From Dehalococcoidia bacterium (GTDB lineage: Bacteria > Chloroflexota > Dehalococcoidia > DSTF01 > JACRBR01), in assembly GCA_041494685.1 (NCBI GenBank), contig JBGQBE010000006.1, positions 16,064 to 80,063 on the forward strand: a stretch of DNA of 64,000 bases, in the 5' to 3' direction. Shown here in pieces: positions 7,923 to 63,751 of the stretch (within the stretch, counting starts at the first letter, position 1; every line of letters begins with the position of its first letter). A program made the translations under genes and the position numbers. The notes beneath the pieces were generated by a model that was not told where the DNA came from, did no database searches, and saw only the letters and a program-made list of their open reading frames with translations.

Positions 7923-9725
7923 TTGCGCCGGCCCGCCGCGCCACTGCCCTGTTCGACAGCCGCCGCCGCTGCTGTTAGACTCGGCCCCATGACCACTCCC
8001 GCCGCGCAGGACAGGACGTCCGCGCCCGCCGCGGACGCGCCGCGACGCCGCCGCTGGCGCGCTCGACCCCGCGCCGACGCCGTCCCCCAGGGCGACTGGC
8101 CGGATCTCGCGGCCCGTATCCTCAGCCTCCGTGGCATCACCGACGCCGGCGCTGCCGCCGCGTTCCTGGCGCCGGCCGGCCCCGCGCCCGACCCCTATGC
8201 CCTGCCCGCCCTCCACGCCGCCGTCGAGCGCCTGCTCCACGCGGTCGAGACGCGGGAGACCGTCGCCGTCTATGGCGACTTCGACGTGGACGGCATCACG
8301 TCCGCCGCCCAGCTCGCGCAGGCGCTCTCGGCGCTCGGCGCCGCGCCCGTGCCCTACATCCCGGACCGCTTCAGCGAGGGCTACGGCCTCAACATCCCCG
8401 CCATCGAGCGGCTCCACCACGATGGCGCGACGCTGCTGGTCACGGCCGACTGCGGCACGAGCTCCGTCGACGAGATCGCCCGCGCCCGCGAGATCGGCAT
8501 GGACGTGGTCGTGCTCGACCATCACACCGTGCCGCCCGTCCTGCCCGATGCGAACATCCTGGTGAACCCCAAGCTGCCCGGCGCCACGCCCGGCGGCTTG
8601 CTCGAACTCGCCACCGCCGGCCTCGCGTTCCACGTCGCCGCCGCACTGCACGAGGCCGCCGGCCGCCCGTTCGACGCCGACGCTTACCTCGACATCGCCG
8701 CGCTCGGCACCGTCTGCGACATGGCGCCGCTGGCCGACGAGAACCGCCGCCTGCTGCGCGCCGGCCTGCCCGCGCTCGCCCGCACGAAACGCCCCGGCCT
8801 GCGCGCGCTGATGGACGTCGCCCGCATCAACGCGCCGTCCGTCTCCGCGGAGGACATCGGCTACAAGCTGGGGCCGCGGCTCAACGCCGCCGGCCGCATC
8901 GCCCACGCGAAACTCGCGCTGGAGCTGCTGATGACGCAGGACGAAGAGCGCGGCCGCGAACTGGCGATGCAGCTCGACGCGCTGAACCGCGAGCGGCAGG
9001 ACCGCACGCAGCAGGCCGTCAACCTGGCCGTCCGGTTGGTCGAGGAGCGCGCCGGCGCGGAGTTGCCGCCGCTGATCATGGTCGGCCACGCCGACTTCTC
9101 GTCAGGCGTGGTCGGTCTCATCGCGTCTAAGCTCGTCGACCTGTACGGCCGCCCCGCGGTCGTCTACGAGATCGGGCCGGAGACGAGCCGCGCCAGCTGC
9201 CGCAGCATCGACGAGTTCCACATCACCGACGCGCTGCGCGTCCGTCCGGAGCTGTTCGAGCGTTTCGGCGGCCACCGCGCCGCCGCCGGCTTCACCGCCC
9301 GCAACGACCGCATCGAAGACGTGCGCGCGCTTCTCGTCCAAGAGGCCGGGCGCGCGCTCGCCGGCCGCGACCTGGCGCCGGTGCTGGAGATCGACTGCAA
9401 CCTGCCGCTGCGCTCGCTGCGCGGCGAAGAGATCCGCTGGCTCGCGCGCATCGGCCCGTTCGGCGTCGGCAACCCGGAGCCGACCTTCCTCGCCCGCAAC
9501 GTCACCGTCGTCGACGCGCGCCTCGTCGGCAACGGCGAGAAGCACCTGAAGCTGCGCCTGCGCGATGGCGGCCTCACCTGGTCCGCCATCGCCTTCGGCC
9601 TCGGAGCGTTCGCCTGCCAGCCCGGCGACCGCGTCGACGTCGTCTACTGCCTCAACAACGACGCGCGCCCCGACGCCCCCCTGGAGATCCGCGTCGAGGA
9701 CATCCGCCCCGCGGAGCCGGCGTAG
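7923..9725 (+). CDS. recJ: single-stranded-DNA-specific exonuclease RecJ (DHH/DHHA1)
   Basis: ...ILSLRGITDAGAAAAFL...VAVYGDFDVDGITSAA...LLVTADCGTSSVDEIARAREIGMDVVVLDHH...; TTG start at 7923 per ORF track; alternative ATG at 7989. Confidence 0.9.
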   Translation: MRRPAAPLPCSTAAAAAVRLGPMTTPAAQDRTSAPAADAPRRRRWRARPRADAVPQGDWPDLAARILSLRGITDAGAAAAFLAPAGPAPDPYALPALHAAVERLLHAVETRETVAVYGDFDVDGITSAAQLAQALSALGAAPVPYIPDRFSEGYGLNIPAIERLHHDGATLLVTADCGTSSVDEIARAREIGMDVVVLDHHTVPPVLPDANILVNPKLPGATPGGLLELATAGLAFHVAAALHEAAGRPFDADAYLDIAALGTVCDMAPLADENRRLLRAGLPALARTKRPGLRALMDVARINAPSVSAEDIGYKLGPRLNAAGRIAHAKLALELLMTQDEERGRELAMQLDALNRERQDRTQQAVNLAVRLVEERAGAELPPLIMVGHADFSSGVVGLIASKLVDLYGRPAVVYEIGPETSRASCRSIDEFHITDALRVRPELFERFGGHRAAAGFTARNDRIEDVRALLVQEAGRALAGRDLAPVLEIDCNLPLRSLRGEEIRWLARIGPFGVGNPEPTFLARNVTVVDARLVGNGEKHLKLRLRDGGLTWSAIAFGLGAFACQPGDRVDVVYCLNNDARPDAPLEIRVEDIRPAEPA

Positions 9726-37179: not shown

Positions 37180-37255
37180 GGGGCGTTTGTAGGAAGTTGG
37201 AGGAAAGGAGGAGCCTGTCTAGCCAGTCGGTCCCGGAGTAGAGGTGCTTCGGGAA

Positions 37256-37322
37256 CTTTCCCCCACCAGGGAAAGAACAGGGCCGTGAGCGTCGTAATTG
37301 GGAGATGACGACGCTCACGGCC
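37256..37322 (+). terminator. two consecutive GC-rich stem-loops downstream of ftsZ (likely dcw-cluster terminator region; no U-tract)
   Basis: CTTTCCCccaccaGGGAAAG (37256..37275) and the perfect 15-bp stem GGCCGTGAGCGTCGTaattgggagatgACGACGCTCACGGCC (37281..37322). Confidence 0.45.
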
Positions 37323-37543
37323 TACCCATCTCCCCGAGAGGAGAAGAGAAGCGGCCCGACCCGGTGGAGCGGCATGGGCAGACGCCACAAGACCGGGAGC
37401 CTGGGCCACGGGGGGAATTGTAGCGGTTTCGGCAGTAGTTATGTAGTGGGGCGAGGTCGTCAGCCGGCCAGCTCGTCAGCGGGTCAGCCGATCGGCTGGT
37501 TAGCCTGTCGACCAGTCTTCAGTCTCCATCACCAGGTGACCAG

Positions 37544-37606
37544 CACTACATCTAGCGCCACGTTCACTCAGAAGCCGTTGACAAGCACTAGATGTAGTGC
37601 TAACCT
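37544..37606 (+). promoter_or_regulatory. two NrdR boxes overlapping a sigma70-like promoter (-35 TTGACA 37578..37583, -10 TAACCT 37601..37606) upstream of nrdR
   Basis: Box1 CACTACATCTAGCG (37544..37557) and box2 CACTAGATGTAGTG (37586..37599) match the NrdR-box palindrome aCACwAtATaTwGTGt; centres 42 bp apart; box2 lies in the -35/-10 spacer. Confidence 0.6.
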
Positions 37607-37686: not shown

Positions 37687-38334
37687 ATGCAGTGCCCATT
37701 CTGCAGCAACCCCGACTCCCGCGTGGTGGACTCCCGCGACGTTGACGGCGCGATCCGCCGCCGGCGCGAGTGCCTGAACCCGGCGTGCGCGTCGCGTTTC
37801 ACCACGTACGAGCGGGTGCAGGCGGTGGCGATCTACGTCGTGAAGAAGGACGGGCGCCGCGAAGAGTTCTCGCGCGAGAAGCTGCTGGGCGGGCTGCGGA
37901 GAGCCTGCGAGAAGCGGCCGCTGGCCGCGGGCGCGGTCGAGGCGCTGGCCGCGGACATCGAGTCCGCGCTGTACGCGTCGAACGCGGCGGAGGTGCCGTC
38001 CAGCGTTGTGGGTGAACTGGTGATCGAGCGGCTGCGCGACCTGGACCCGGTCGCCTACGTACGGTTCGCCAGCGTGTACCGCCAGTTCGCCGATGTCGAT
38101 TCGTTCCGGGAAGAACTGGAGGCGCTGGCTTCCGGCACGCGGCCCGCACAGGCCCAACTGCCGTTGCTGGACGCGGAGTTCTCCCCCACCTCTCTTCGGC
38201 TGCGACCGGCCGCACCGAATTCACGAACCCGTACCCGCCGCCCGGTGCGGCCGGTGCAGACTCCTGTCTCCATTGCGGAGCAGGCTGCGCCGCGGGGGCC
38301 GTCGAAGAGGGCGAAGAACGCGCGCCAGGCGTAG
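37687..38334 (+). CDS. nrdR: transcriptional repressor NrdR (zinc ribbon + ATP-cone) with an unusual ~55-aa low-complexity C-terminal extension
   Basis: MQCPFCSNPDSRVVDSRDVDGAIRRRRECLNPACASRFTTYERV...VVKKDGRREEFSREKLLGGLRRACEKRP... then tail ...RPAAPNSRTRTRRPVRPVQTPVSIAEQAAPRGPSKRAKNARQA. Confidence 0.9.
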   Translation: MQCPFCSNPDSRVVDSRDVDGAIRRRRECLNPACASRFTTYERVQAVAIYVVKKDGRREEFSREKLLGGLRRACEKRPLAAGAVEALAADIESALYASNAAEVPSSVVGELVIERLRDLDPVAYVRFASVYRQFADVDSFREELEALASGTRPAQAQLPLLDAEFSPTSLRLRPAAPNSRTRTRRPVRPVQTPVSIAEQAAPRGPSKRAKNARQA

Positions 38335-42316: not shown

Positions 42317-42565
42317 ATGGCTGTAGCAGCGAAGAAGCCGGCAGCGAAGAAGCCGGCCGCCAAGAAGAAGCCAGCGGCCAAGAAGGCTGCGGCGAAGAAG
42401 CCGGCCGCCAAGAAGGCTGCCCCCAAGAAGAAGCCGGCGGCGAAGAAGCCGGCCGCCAAGAAGAAGCCGGCCGCCAAGAAGGCTGCCCCCAAGAAGGCAG
42501 CAGCGGCGAAGTCCCGAACCGCCAAGAAGCCGGCCGCGAAGCGCAAGCCGGCGGCGAAGAAGTAA
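42317..42565 (+). CDS. histone H1/AlgP-like lysine-alanine-rich nucleoid-associated protein (KAPA/AKKPAAKK repeats)
   Basis: MAVAAKKPAAKKPAAKKKPAAKKAAAKKPAAKK... 82 aa; strong RBS GGAGG; DNA is a tandem 24-30-nt repeat; the opposite-strand ORF (AAGFF repeats) is its shadow. Confidence 0.8.
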   Translation: MAVAAKKPAAKKPAAKKKPAAKKAAAKKPAAKKAAPKKKPAAKKPAAKKKPAAKKAAPKKAAAAKSRTAKKPAAKRKPAAKK

Positions 42566-48986: not shown

Positions 48987-50336
48987 CTATGTCTCGCTGA
49001 CGCCCGTGAACTCCCACTGCGCGATCTTGAGCGCGGGCACGCTGCGCACCCCGCCGCCGATATCGCCGAGCACGAGCGCGGCGGCGCGCCCCACCATATC
49101 GACGTGGTTCAGCGCGGCGACGTAGTCCTGGGTGAAGCGCAGGTTGCGGACGGGCGCGACGACCTGGCCGTCTTCGATCAGGAACGTGCCATCGCGGGTC
49201 ATGCCCGTGGTAACGACGTTGAGCGGGTGCACCGTGCGGGTGTACCAGAAGCGGCTAACCCAGATGCCGTGCTTCGTCGCGCGGACCATGTCGTCGACGG
49301 TGGCGTCGCCCGTGCCCATGAACATGTGCAACGGCAGCGGGCCGATCGTGTTGCCCGCCGGCAGCGCGTGGCCGGTCGAGCGCGTGTCGCCGCCCTGCTT
49401 GCCGGCGTAGTAGCTGTCCCAGACGACCTCGCGCGCGATGCCGTGGTCGATGAAGTCGACGCGGCGCTTCGGCACGCCCTCGAAGTCGAACGGCGATGGG
49501 ATGCCCGCCGGCGAGAGGCCGTCGTCCCAGATGCTGACGTTCTCGCCCATGACGCGCTCGCCCAGGCGGCCGGCCATGAAGCTGCGCTTCTCGGTGTACG
49601 GCAACGCGCCGAACGAGAGGTACGAGAAGAAGTCGAGCAGGTCGGCCACGGCGTAGGGCTCCAGGATCACCTCGTACACGCCGGGCTCGACGGTGCGCGG
49701 GTCCACGCCGCGCAGCGCGCGGTCCACGGCCTCGCGGGCGACGGCGTCGCCGTCGATGTCGCCGGCGTCCTTGCTGACGCGCGCCGCGTAGCCGCTGGAG
49801 GTCTCAGACATGACGACGGTGTTGATGTCGGCCTGGGTCTCGCGGTGGCGGGCGAAGACGCCGAGCGAGTTGGCGACGGCGTGCTCCGTAGCGGCGGTCT
49901 GGAACGCGCCGGCGGCGGTGAGCCCGGCGCGCGAGGCGGCGTCGCAAATCTGCGCGACGACGGACGCGCGCTCCTCGGGGCCGCAGCGCGCGGTGGCGTC
50001 GGCGAAGGCCGCGGCCCCGGCGACGGGCCGGGGGCGCGGCAGCGAGCGGAAGTCCTCGTTCTCGCGCTGGTGTTGCGCCAGGTCGAACGCCTTCGCCGCG
50101 AGGCGGCGCAGCGCCTCCTCGTCAATCTCGTTGGACGAGGCGATGCCGATCTTCTGGCCGATGACGGCGCGGATCGTGACACCTACGTCGGTCTGCTCGA
50201 CGTTCTGGTGGATGTAGTTGTTGGCGAACCGCGTGAGCGACGAGTGGGTTGCGGAGACGGCGACCTCGGTCTGGTCAGCGCGGCTGGCGGCCAGCACGGT
50301 CTGCGCGATGCGCGTGATCTCGGATTCGCCCAGCAT
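48987..50336 (-). CDS. TldD/PmbA family metalloprotease
   Basis: MLGESEITRIAQTVLAASRADQTEVAVSATHSSLTRFANNYIHQNVEQTDVGVTIRAVIGQKIGIASSNE...; track start 50381 is an alternative. Confidence 0.8.
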   Translation of the reverse strand: MLGESEITRIAQTVLAASRADQTEVAVSATHSSLTRFANNYIHQNVEQTDVGVTIRAVIGQKIGIASSNEIDEEALRRLAAKAFDLAQHQRENEDFRSLPRPRPVAGAAAFADATARCGPEERASVVAQICDAASRAGLTAAGAFQTAATEHAVANSLGVFARHRETQADINTVVMSETSSGYAARVSKDAGDIDGDAVAREAVDRALRGVDPRTVEPGVYEVILEPYAVADLLDFFSYLSFGALPYTEKRSFMAGRLGERVMGENVSIWDDGLSPAGIPSPFDFEGVPKRRVDFIDHGIAREVVWDSYYAGKQGGDTRSTGHALPAGNTIGPLPLHMFMGTGDATVDDMVRATKHGIWVSRFWYTRTVHPLNVVTTGMTRDGTFLIEDGQVVAPVRNLRFTQDYVAALNHVDMVGRAAALVLGDIGGGVRSVPALKIAQWEFTGVSET

Positions 50337-50389
50337 GGGGCAACTATAGCGGCTGGGCCGCGGAGGCTGGAGGCCGGGCACGGTTCAGT

Positions 50390-52923: not shown

Positions 52924-53451
52924 ATGTCAATCGTGTCACCAGAACGGCTCGTAACCCCCCGGTTTTGCCTCGTGTGCGGCGGCTCGCTCGTCGAACGCTT
53001 CATCGCGTCCGAGGGGCGGCGAAGGTACCAGTGCGAGGCGTGCGAGTACATCCACTACGAGAACCCCAGGGTCGTGGCGGCCGTCATCATCGAGCACGGC
53101 GGCAGGCTCCTGCTGCAGCAGCGGGCGATGGAGCCGCGGACAGGCTTCTGGACGTTCCCGGGCGGCTTCCTCGAGGTCGGCGAGCGGCCACAGGACGGCG
53201 CAGTGCGCGAGGCGAACGAGGAGGTCGGGCTGGACGTGACGGTACGGTCGCTCCAGGGCGTCTACTGCCGGCCGGAAGTGGGCATCGTGCTCGTAGTGTA
53301 CGAGGGGACCAGTTCGACCGATGAGGCCGTCGTGGCGGACTGGGAGTCGACCGCGGTGCGCTGGTACGGCATCGACGAGATCCCGTGGCCGGAGCTGGCG
53401 TTCGTGACCACGGAGGCGGCGCTGCGGGACTGGGTCGCCGCGCACGGGTAG
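52924..53451 (+). CDS. NUDIX hydrolase with N-terminal zinc ribbon (NudC-like architecture)
   Basis: CLVCGGSL...YQCEACEY zinc ribbon; Nudix box [24 protein letters not shown]. Confidence 0.85.
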
Positions 53452-53462
53452 CGGGACGGCGG

Positions 53463-53490
53463 CCAGTCTCCAGTCTCCAGTCTCCAGTCT
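53463..53490 (+). repeat. heptanucleotide tandem repeat (CCAGTCT)x4 immediately upstream of/overlapping the trmD start
   Basis: ggCCAGTCTCCAGTCTCCAGTCTCCAGTCTCCATGagc; a related 17-mer occurs upstream of nrdR (37512..37530). Confidence 0.8.
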
Positions 53491-53492
53491 CC

Positions 53493-54638
53493 ATGAGCTA
53501 CCCTCACGGCATGCGGATCGACATCCTGACGCTGTTCCCGGAGATGTTCTCCGGGCCGTTTGACGCAAGCATCATCGCGCGGGCGCGGCAGAGCGGCGTG
53601 CTGGAGATCGCCCTCCACAATCCACGCGACTACACCGGCGACAAGCACCACGTCGTGGACGACTATGCGTACGGCGGCGGGCCCGGCATGGTGATGAAGC
53701 CGGAGCCGCTGTTCGACTGCGTGGACGCGGTGCGGGCGCTGGCCGCCCCGCGCGGCAAGGTCGTGCTGTTGACGCCGCAGGGCCGCCTGCTGGATCACGC
53801 GGTGGCGGCGGAGCTCGCGCGCGAAGAGCGGCTGATCGTGATCTGCGGCCACTACGAGGGCGTGGACGAGCGCGTGCGCGAGTTCCTGGCGGACGACGAG
53901 ATCAGCATCGGCGACTACGTGCTGTCCGGCGGCGAGCCGGCGGCGATCGTGCTGGTCGACGCGGTGGCGCGGCACCAGCCGGGCGTGCTGGGGTCGGAGG
54001 CGTCGCTGGAGGAGGAGTCACACGCGCAGGGGCTGCTGGAGTACCCGCAGTACACCCGGCCGCCGCTGTACCGCGAGATGGCGGTGCCGGAGATCCTGCT
54101 CTCGGGCCACCACGCCGAGATCGAGAAGTGGCGGCGCCAGCAGAGCGTGCTCCGCACGGCGCGGCGCCGCCCCGACCTGCTGGCGAAGGCGACGCTGACG
54201 GCGGCCGAGCGGCGGTTGGTCGAGGCGGAGCGCGGCGGCGAGGCGGCCGTGACGCCGGCGCTGCTGCGGGTCGTCATGCCGGTGAGCGACATCGAGCGCG
54301 CGGCGGCGTTCTACGCGGCGGCGCTCGGCACGCCGGGCGCGCGCGTCTCTCCGGGACGCCACGACTTCGACTGCGGCGGCGTCGTGCTGGCGTGTGTCGA
54401 TCCGCGCGCGGACGGCGAAGACCGCGACGCCCGGCCGAACGCCGAGCACGTCTGCTTCGCCGTGCCAGACCTGGCCGCGGCGTTCGAGCGCGTGCGCGGG
54501 GCTGGCTGCCAGTGGATCGAACGGCGCCCAAAGACGCGCGACGGCGGCGAGCGTTCGTTCCGCGCGCGGGACCCGTTCGGCAACCCGATCTGCTTCGTGG
54601 ACGAGCGCACGGCGCGCGGCGGCGGGCTGAAGGAGTAG
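53493..54638 (+). CDS. trmD: tRNA (guanine37-N1)-methyltransferase TrmD fused to a C-terminal glyoxalase/VOC domain
   Basis: (MSYPHG)[42 protein letters not shown]...[12 protein letters not shown]...YVLSGGE... then, without a stop, [23 protein letters not shown]...[22 protein letters not shown]...[13 protein letters not shown]; alternative ATG 53511. Confidence 0.85.
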
Positions 54639-55419: not shown

Positions 55420-55494
55420 GGATCAGGAGCGCAACGCATGCCAGGGCCGCATGACGCGGGGCGGCGGATCTTGGTACGCTGATGTGACAGCAGA

Positions 55495-55605
55495 TCGTTC
55501 TGCGGGAGCTGGGAGATGCCCGGCTGAGAGGGCCGCCGGCGCGGCCGACCGCCGAACCTGACCCGGGTAATGCCGGCGCAGGGAGTGGACACCGGCCCGC
55601 CTCGC
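55495..55605 (+). promoter_or_regulatory. TPP riboswitch (THI element) controlling the thiD-thiG-thiE-thiS-thiO operon
   Basis: Conserved CTGAGA (55523..55528) and ACCTGAcccGGgTAATGCCggCGcAGGGA (55555..55583), ~30 nt upstream of the thiD ATG. Confidence 0.85.
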
Positions 55606-63501: not shown

Positions 63502-63751
63502 GTCGTCTCCTCCGTCCATGTATGTCCGATGTCGTCTGGTTGATCTTCAGCCGTGTGGCGGGCGTCCCCCGCGGTCGTCAGCGCATGTCCCCCTCCGTGC
63601 TCTGTCCCTTGCAGCGGCGAGTATCGCGCGGCTGGCGCAGCCGCTGCCGGACGCGGCGGCTACGCGCGGCCTACGCTTCGTCGACGGAGCCGGACGGGCC
63701 GGGCGGGCGGATGTCGGAGGTCGGAGATCAGGAGGGCGGTCGGTCGGTCGG

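Follow-up and report, generated by a model that had tools for sequence, protein, structure and literature searches.

Why should a perfect seven-nucleotide repeat stand directly in front of a housekeeping gene, and why should a near-identical patch of it recur upstream of a second gene of the same genome? This question is raised by a 64,000-nucleotide stretch of a Dehalococcoidia bacterium (contig JBGQBE010000006.1), hereafter the window, in which the heptamer CCAGTCT is repeated in tandem between a NUDIX hydrolase gene and trmD and reappears upstream of nrdR. An earlier note on this DNA proposed that the two sites are bound by a common regulator or belong to a small dispersed repeat, and that changes in copy number would shift the reading frame or the spacing. 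By comparing the locus with its relatives and with same-unit arrays elsewhere, we arrive at a different answer: the trmD array is a further case of the known intergenic heptanucleotide repeats (STRR, TAACTGA, GGGAATC), a rapidly evolving, probably slippage-made microsatellite and not a conserved regulator site. We favor, with reasonable though incomplete confidence, the view that it is near-neutral and sits in the unconstrained upstream half of a leaderless trmD promoter.

A perfect heptanucleotide array in front of trmD

Tandem Repeats Finder (TRF) reports, at 53463-53493 of the forward strand, the unit CCAGTCT with period 7, 4.4 copies, 100% matches and a score of 62, which bears out the four perfect copies described in the earlier note. 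The four units are followed by CCA, whose last base forms, with the two bases after it, an ATG (53493-53495), and the whole array is non-coding, lying between the NUDIX stop at 53451 and the conserved trmD start at 53511. It is no assembly artefact, because an independent Joint Genome Institute (JGI) metagenome contig, L001, carries an identical 4.4-copy array. Copy number is equal between the window and L001, and likewise between L002 and L003, a small sample of two lineages with two assemblies each. L001 comes from JGI metagenome 3300053059 and L002 from 3300032163.

A 17-mer taken from the array, with up to three mismatches allowed, has five matches in the window compared to 0.06 expected, and none of 100 dinucleotide-preserving shuffles reaches five, so that the near-identical copy previously noticed upstream of NrdR box 1, one mismatch away, stands as a real resemblance. 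The lone heptamer CCAGTCT shows no enrichment by itself (7 occurrences compared to 4.8 expected), and the wider CTCCAGYCTCC family, at one mismatch or fewer, occurs 6 times in the window against 3.1 expected, a count reached by 13 of the 100 shuffles; as this is not significant alone, we claim no window-wide motif family from statistics alone. If a clean tandem array is taken to have at least three copies and at least 85% matches, the 64-kb window contains one, a density that looks low, together with about four short heptamer sites related to CCAGTCT.

The downstream gene is trmD (PF01746), as had been proposed, but its fuller identity is that of a TrmD-glyoxalase fusion (PF00903). It adjoins the NUDIX gene, with a spacer of 59 nt from the NUDIX stop codon to ATG 53511, and does not lie in the usual rpsP-rimM-trmD-rplS cluster; the sources of its close homologues are named as Dehalococcoidia or Chloroflexota metagenome-assembled genomes (MAGs). 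The fusion of TrmD to a C-terminal glyoxalase/VOC domain is common to more than 50 homologues.

Which ATG begins this gene decides what the array could do to it. Nearly all the TrmD homologues listed begin with MRIDI, VRIDI or a close variant; the ATG corresponding to 53493 is missing in lineages L004 and L213; and the six extra codons that would follow it differ between the window and L002 by two substitutions, both non-synonymous. For these reasons the true start is, judging by the sequence, most likely ATG 53511, 18 nt downstream of the repeat's own ATG, and the annotated start both here and in the L002 orthologue is probably 18 nt too far upstream if our reading of the locus is right. The partial fifth copy was said to hold the start codon: an ATG does overlap that partial unit, but the conserved start lies beyond it. 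With either ATG the array is upstream, and gain or loss of a unit therefore cannot shift the frame, contrary to what the earlier note had expected.

Two open reading frames (ORFs) that would place the array within a protein were considered and dropped. One begins at GTG 53385 and overlaps the NUDIX gene in a different frame, which is not credible; the other is an antisense ORF at 53087-53494 whose first residues, METGDW, are read from the reverse complement of the array; it runs opposite to the NUDIX gene, which it overlaps, and was taken for a spurious high-GC ORF.

A putative leaderless promoter between array and gene

Between the array and the conserved start lies a TACCCT box. The window, L002, L004 and L005 have in common the arrangement TAC[C/T/G]CT-N6-ATG, which takes the form TAACCT-N6-ATG in L213; TAnnnT at 6 or 7 nt from the start also precedes trmD in the more distant L131, L139 and L145. 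No Shine-Dalgarno (SD)-like sequence is found ahead of either trmD ATG, whereas many neighboring genes have GGAG or GAGG at -7 to -14. The same genome has canonical promoters, namely, TTGACA-N17-TAACCT at nrdR and TCGACA-N17-TAGACT-N7-ATG at 7989. From the conservation of the box and its spacing, we infer that trmD has a promoter of its own, with a -10 box, no recognizable -35 element and a leaderless mRNA, and that the array occupies about -48 to -18 of it.

Scans of 53300-53650 returned neither a terminator (hairpin plus T-run) nor a strict sigma-70 promoter. The NUDIX-trmD spacers of three lineages are predicted to fold about as well as shuffled sequence (z = -0.46, +0.67 and -1.41), and neither the trmD array nor the nrdR copy has an inverted partner array within 120 nt or terminal inverted repeats. 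The NUDIX 3' end offers GGAGGC/GGGACUGG as a pairing partner for the array, but such pairing is unsupported, the folds being no better than shuffles. No Rfam family is found at or near the heptamer sites, and the sole gathering-level match in the window is a thiamine pyrophosphate (TPP) riboswitch at 55492-55602.

The array persists while its unit turns over

The order NUDIX-trmD is kept in five related lineages; in four of them the spacer contains a heptamer array, with a unit that differs from lineage to lineage. Against (CCAGTCT)4.4 in the window, L002 and L003 have (CCAGCCT)4.3, with the same position changed in all units; L004 has the decayed CCNNCCY units CGCCTCC AACCTCC GACCCCC; and L213 has CCTACAA CCTATCA CCTGCAA CCTATAA (CCTAYAA x4.6), the last junction of which makes the -10 box TAACCT. 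L132 has the same gene order with no spacer and L131 a different upstream region; these were the only fusion-clade loci added by a metagenome TrmD scan, whose other returns were mostly distant relatives. TrmD of the window, L002 and L004 are about equidistant (88.5 to 90.6% identity) and that of L213 is more distant, and the spacers measure 59, 64, 70 and 48 nt. An array that is retained while its unit turns over and its length is unconstrained bears the signature of slippage with concerted evolution. The trmD array is an intergenic heptanucleotide simple-sequence repeat (SSR), with tandem 7-nt units beyond chance, a non-coding position and a unit that changes fast between relatives, and since every unit has changed between sister lineages, the locus would offer, if our reading holds, a clean natural example of concerted microsatellite evolution.

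This turnover bears on a possible role of the array in RNA, where, in transcripts reading through from NUDIX into trmD, the pyrimidine-rich CCAGUCU repeats, which are non-self-complementary, would be an unstructured landing pad (for S1 or a binder of the Csp/CsrA type) for initiation without an SD, a role that has been proposed for the TAACTGA repeats of Beggiatoaceae (PMC4679880). The lack of an SD before either trmD ATG beside neighbors that have GGAG or GAGG, the lack of a terminator-like site between NUDIX and trmD, the anatomical match with the TAACTGA repeats (PMC4679880) and the same-unit arrays that abut plausible starts in other phyla (L059, L104, L014, L098 and L074) all speak for it. 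However, the conserved start is 18 nt farther on than the array, and the conserved TACNCT-N6-ATG would suit a leaderless mRNA, from which the array would be missing; the spacer folds like its shuffles, and its minimum-energy fold pairs the array with the NUDIX 3' end and does not leave it open; and a sequence-specific binder is unlikely because the units differ between lineages. We consider such a landing pad quite unlikely.

A second spacer of the same kind upstream of tldD

The 53-nt spacer between comF and tldD, on the minus strand of the window, contains CCTCCAGCCTCC, two units of the CCAGCCT type, and a TATAGT (50343-50348) that lies 6 nt upstream of the tldD ATG (50334-50336). In L002 the same spacer holds GTCTGTT GTCTGCT GTTTGCT GTTTGCT (GTCTGTT/GTTTGCT x3.6) and in L004 CCCCTGT CCCCCGT CCCCCGT (CCCCCGT x3.7). 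By these sequences, it behaves like the NUDIX-trmD spacer, the arrays being kept and the units differing. L213 has gained a 38-nt leader with GGAG behind TATAGT and still retains the box, which supports its being a real -10 box. The array abuts this box in L004 and ends 16 nt before it in L002, and such a lineage-dependent register argues against a fixed functional spacing.

The two promoters together allow us to weigh whether the array is a tunable module that supplies the -35 region (TCCAGT at -35 to -30) and whose changes by 7-bp units modulate transcription or insulate it from read-through, as at hmw1A. The conserved -10 box comes directly after the array, and the tldD promoter has CTCCAGCCTCC at the same spacing (CTCC-N13-TAnnnT-N6-ATG), with TCCAGC at -35 to -30. 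Furthermore, four lineages keep arrays in the orthologous spacers, the number of full copies is four in both the window and L002, and in Haemophilus influenzae HMW1A expression is inversely proportional to the length of (ATCTTTC)n (PMC12721329). Yet the distance between array and -10 box varies at tldD, the units of different lineages are unrelated (GTTTGCT, CCCCCGT, CCTAYAA), and TCCAGT matches TTGACA at two of six positions although the genome uses -35 boxes of the TTGACA type. In a periodic array, moreover, a change in copy number leaves the sequence beside the -10 box as it is, trmD is a housekeeping and not a contingency gene, and copy number is the same in the paired assemblies of both lineages. 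On balance, we find a tunable module unlikely. A phase-variable on/off switch is not supported: the array is upstream of the start, unit number does not alter the sequence beside the -10 box, and the gene is trmD.

A young copy upstream of nrdR

The second site, 37512-37529, reads CCAGTCTtCAGTCTCCAT (also given as CCAGTCTTCAGTCTCCAT) and differs by one mismatch from the 3' end of the trmD array; it also has the terminal T of CCAT, the base that breaks the 7-nt period of the array. It lies about 72 to 89 nt upstream of the nrdR -10 box, at about -100 to -80, outside both conserved NrdR palindromes, and is not itself an NrdR box (a 16-bp palindrome of the CACTA..TAGTG type, in tandem pairs that overlap the promoter). 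The control region next to it contains an NrdR-box-like inverted repeat with 17-nt arms that are 94% complementary, and the promoter is well preserved, the -35 hexamer and most of box 2 being invariant in 4 to 6 lineages, whereas the -10 box and box 1 vary at a few positions.

Conservation stops short of the heptamers. Their copy is missing upstream of nrdR in all three close relatives examined, L125, L211 and L126 (NrdR 91 to 96% identical, 96% in L125), where the matching region is full of indels and local duplications. L211 belongs to the L002 lineage, whose trmD array is now CCAGCCT, yet neither CCAGCCT nor CCAGTCT is found upstream of its nrdR. Judged by these alignments, the nrdR copy is a young event specific to the lineage of the window, and a short templated copy from the 3' end of the trmD array is plausible because the nrdR site has the non-periodic end of that array.

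These observations also settle how we regard the regulator that the earlier note had placed on both genes, with the CAGTCTC direct repeat as its operator. In its favor are the near identity of the two sites and their positions, each upstream of a gene, but a shared operator is rejected because the nrdR copy is unconserved beside conserved NrdR boxes and promoter; besides, the lineage that changed its trmD unit shows neither unit at nrdR, the trmD unit itself differs between lineages, the sites lie at different positions relative to the two promoters, and successive sites spaced by 7 bp would face different sides of the helix. A common operator is in our view barely credible.

Several other features of the nrdR neighborhood deserve mention. 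Just upstream of the heptamer copy, at 37457-37488, there is a 16-nt tandem duplication (TCGTCAGCCGGCCAGC / TCGTCAGCGGGTCAGC), a sign that slippage readily occurs in the nrdR spacer; a deletion of about 65 nt is also seen in that spacer. A possible third NrdR-like half box lies at 37433-37449, about 100 nt upstream of box 1, with ATGTAGTG complementary to box 1; its GTAGTTATGTAG is also found in L125 and L211. Just after ftsZ, at about 37200-37325, a three-hairpin element is conserved down to 81% NrdR identity, with one compensatory pair and no Rfam match. A weak likeness to CCAG[TC]CC within the ftsA-ftsZ spacer was partly conserved and formed no array, and was dropped.

A third, weaker match lies inside nrdR itself. 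An 82-nt block (38192-38273) without variation in four lineages has this match as its 3' end. The match is ancestral and conserved, unlike the two other sites, to which it may be unrelated (we estimate that about 0.01 would be expected by chance). The block lies in the 3' part of the gene, and its invariance compares with an overall invariant fraction of 0.83. It has two hairpins, a 13-bp one that is perfect (ACCGGCCGCACCG / CGGTGCGGCCGGT) and another (fold z = -2.3). Rfam gives no match for the block, which may be an RNA or DNA element embedded in the gene.

Weighing the slippage reading

We return to the reading that we favor, that of a slippage-made array in a promoter region that tolerates it. 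Replication slippage would both make the array and keep its units alike, as units come and go and one that has mutated can spread to its neighbors. The array would occupy the part of the leaderless promoter that is free of sequence constraint, and for this reason a repeat would be tolerated before a housekeeping gene; as it is periodic, the number of units leaves the sequence beside the -10 box unaltered, and a gain or loss would only move the NUDIX stop codon relative to the promoter. The ATG at 53493 would be a by-product of the repeat. At nrdR, a young two-unit patch would have arisen in a spacer prone to indels and duplications, either copied from the 3' end of the trmD array or through the same unit-biased slippage. 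Taken over the sequences compared here, the trmD array is probably near-neutral.

Some observations weigh against this account. The -10 box and the leaderless start are themselves deduced from conservation and spacing alone, and the strict sigma-70 consensus scan of the region gave no promoter. Arrays that last in the same two spacers across four lineages could reflect selection and not neutral persistence, and both the window and L002 have four full copies. Finally, the identity of 18 out of 19 positions between the trmD and nrdR sites, including the non-periodic T, is unexplained by independent slippage and needs an extra copying event.

If the account is right, neither a regulatory motif nor a frameshift switch should be seen in the trmD repeat, and the practical consequences are modest. 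Heptamer arrays are a widespread and poorly understood class.

Other arrays and features of the window

A further array in the window, degenerate and CCTCCGA-like, covers 12 to 43 nt past the stop codon of the upstream minus-strand gene (Table 1). With it, the four arrays of the window are C-rich on the sense strand of their flanking genes, and three of them start 12 to 17 nt past the upstream stop codon, which would suit a sequence that stops NUDIX transcription short of the trmD promoter, either as a terminator or as a C-rich, rut-like Rho-loading site, or else part of a small mobile element (miniature inverted-repeat transposable element, MITE). The C-minus-G skew centered on the trmD array is, however, ordinary, falling in the 78th percentile when 40-nt windows are taken and in the 30th when they are 78 nt; the array spans just 31 nt and is flanked by G-rich sequence, and some of the orthologous arrays are GU-rich or purine-rich. 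A terminator is opposed by the absence of a hairpin plus T-run in 53300-53650, and a mobile element by the absence of an inverted partner array or terminal inverted repeats and by the fact that the trmD and nrdR sites have 18 nt in common and no more. All of these we hold to be very improbable.

Two features unrelated to the arrays were recorded as well. A long imperfect tandem repeat with periods 15, 33 and 66 and a unit of the GAAGAAGCCGGCCGCCAAGAAG type extends over 42325-42562, one frame of which would give Lys/Ala-rich repeats. The TPP riboswitch mentioned above scores 55.2 bits (gathering score 54.3) and lies upstream of thiamine biosynthesis genes.

Table 1. Heptamer sites and associated features, in coordinates of the window
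Feature	Position	Strand	Basis or remarks
Heptanucleotide tandem array (CCAGTCT)x4.4	53463..53493	+	TRF and sequence; starts 12 nt past the NUDIX stop codon
ATG in the last partial unit	53493..53495	+	Start chosen by gene callers (381-aa product); probably not the physiological start
Putative -10 box TACCCT	53499..53504	+	6 nt upstream of the conserved ATG; putative leaderless arrangement
trmD-glyoxalase/VOC fusion gene, from conserved start	53511..54638	+	Pfam PF01746 (1.9e-63) and PF00903 (4.1e-13); N-termini of homologues
NUDIX hydrolase gene, upstream and co-directional	52924..53451	+	Pfam PF00293 and PF14803; stop TAG 53449-53451
Two-unit copy CCAGTCT TCAGTCT CCAT	37512..37529	+	Hypervariable spacer upstream of NrdR box 1; lineage-specific
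nrdR control region, conserved	37542..37606	+	Palindromes 37542-37558 and 37585-37601; -35 TTGACA 37578-37583; -10 TAACCT 37601-37606
Third, weaker match CAGaCTCCtGTCTCCAT (= CAGACTCCTGTCTCCAT)	38257..38273	+	Inside nrdR
CCTCCAGCCTCC, two CCAGCCT-type units in the comF-tldD spacer	50362..50373	-	13 nt upstream of TATAGT
Degenerate heptamer array, CCTCCGA-like, 4.4 copies, 76% matches	63708..63739	-	TRF

A wider class of heptamer arrays

Period 7 is the commonest among clean arrays, both in the loci of the clade (8 of 16) and in 295 kb of unrelated trmD loci (6 of 19), in accord with the survey of Mrazek et al. (2007) as cited in PMC4679880 and PMC4692102. Using CAGTCTNCAGTCTCCAT to scan one genome per species, we found at least 118 stretches; among the matches listed, 38 lie in longer arrays, 14 have an adjoining inverted array and about 22 come from Chloroflexota, where several MAGs have two or three matches together with many other period-7 arrays per 8 kb. 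The CCAGTCT unit thus forms arrays in other Chloroflexota as well as in Bacteroidota and Cyanobacteria. As the query is itself a repeat and the count of 118 is a lower bound, the scan shows that the class exists, not that it is enriched. The dispersed repeat that the earlier note offered as its second possibility is accordingly upheld, in the form of a class of heptamer arrays: related units lie at 50362-50373 and 63708-63739, and CCAGTCT itself forms arrays in numerous other genomes of Chloroflexota.

In other phyla, same-unit arrays lie near plausible starts, the ATG falling within CCATG in L059 and L104 and following at 2 nt in L014, 10 nt in L098 and 26 nt in L074. In L104, a Chamaesiphon MAG, five CCCCAGT units pass straight into CTCCAGT units, and these end with the CCATG at which a permease gene starts.

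Inverted pairs of arrays, (GGAGACT)n ... (AGTCTCC)n, which are potential long hairpins, were seen in L014, L021, L041, L057, L078, L098, L107 and L121. They come from MAGs of Anaerolineae/Caldilineae, Acidobacteriota and Bacteroidota, with several per 8 kb and units that differ mainly by transitions. These resemble the arrays of the window in their unit family, A[GA]TCTC[CT], in being intergenic and in occurring several times per Chloroflexota genome, but they can form hairpins, whereas the window has direct arrays alone, no inverted partner being found within 120 nt of them.

Heptamers also occur within trmD. Perfect in-frame arrays were observed in a variable loop of other metagenomic trmD genes (L173 569-598, L182 483-549, L188 525-557 and L195 2776-2802; e.g., AATCAAA x4.7), where one unit gained or lost would frameshift an essential gene. 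In L005, a 21-copy (AAGAGCA) array at 14-160 ends about 28 nt upstream of a 647-aa ORF without a Pfam domain.

One may speculate that heptamer arrays form a recurrent, evolvable module that goes with the -10 boxes of housekeeping genes whose mRNAs are leaderless, in short spacers between co-directional genes, where they would set promoter strength or insulate from read-through and allow fast tuning of essential-gene expression; we think this unlikely. Such arrays may be born by stuttering duplication of the heptamer that holds the -10 box: the trmD units C-CAGTCT, C-CAGCCT, C-CAACCT and A-TAACCT share the 7-nt register of the box C-TACCCT, and the last unit of L213 is the -10 box TAACCT. If arrays are functionally tied to leaderless promoters, they would provide a testable case of slippage tuning the expression of essential genes.

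Comparison with known heptanucleotide repeats

Heptanucleotides are described as the most abundant long SSRs in prokaryotes, with polymerase slippage as the proposed mechanism (Mrazek et al. 2007, as cited in PMC4679880 and PMC4692102). In Xanthomonas and Nostoc, GGGAATC forms intergenic arrays that mostly separate co-directional genes and lie close to where the upstream ORF ends, and in Xanthomonas they are found between the same flanking genes in related species with extensive variation in length and sequence (PMC4692102). The trmD array is like these long SSRs in its 7-nt unit, in being perfect or near-perfect, in its intergenic position between co-directional genes and in lying near the end of the upstream ORF. 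Unlike GGGAATC, CCAGTCT and CCAGCCT cannot form a G-quadruplex, the host is a high-GC uncultured member of the Chloroflexota, and the array stands against the putative -10 box of a leaderless housekeeping gene.

The STRR (short tandemly repeated repetitive) repeats are dispersed tandem heptamers as well, with the units CCCCAGT, TTGGTCA and CAACAGT. The first of these is reportedly STRR1, from the work of Mazel et al. in 1990. CTCCAGT, a rotation of the trmD unit, is one base off this CCCCAGT. On the other hand, STRR repeats were defined in heterocystous cyanobacteria and are very abundant per genome, whereas the trmD unit is not identical to theirs, its host belongs to the Chloroflexota, and few, short arrays are seen. 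PMC4692102 cites three tandem heptanucleotides of Calothrix PCC 7601.

A heptanucleotide repeat between upstream sequence and gene start is also known from hmw1A and hmw2A of H. influenzae, which have a phase-variable 7-bp (ATCTTTC)n upstream (PMC12721329, PMC8262952); at hmw1A the effect of length on expression is graded and acts through a hairpin in the 5' untranslated region (5'-UTR) (PMC12721329). At trmD, too, slippage could in principle grade expression. The hmw arrays, however, have at least 11 units, lie in a transcribed 5'-UTR hairpin that is processed by RNase III, precede a surface adhesin gene and vary within populations, whereas the trmD array has four units, no hairpin partner and a housekeeping gene downstream, and no variation was observed between two assemblies in each of two lineages.

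An anatomical parallel in gene-start position is offered by the TAACTGA repeats of Beggiatoaceae and some Cyanobacteria and Bacteroidetes, in which 2 to 6 forward copies precede, by a few nucleotides, starts that usually lack a ribosome-binding site (MacGregor 2015, PMC4679880). Some of the downstream genes are essential, and the positions of the repeats are strain-specific, with indels in 7-nt steps (PMC4679880). The trmD array is likewise forward and intergenic, ends in an ATG and is associated with no SD. It differs in its unit, CCAGTCT, and in that the conserved start lies 18 nt beyond the array with a -10-like box between them, which points to a promoter context at the level of DNA and not to a 5'-UTR element. 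If our reading is right, this locus adds Chloroflexota to the phyla in which heptamer arrays are found just upstream of starts without an SD.

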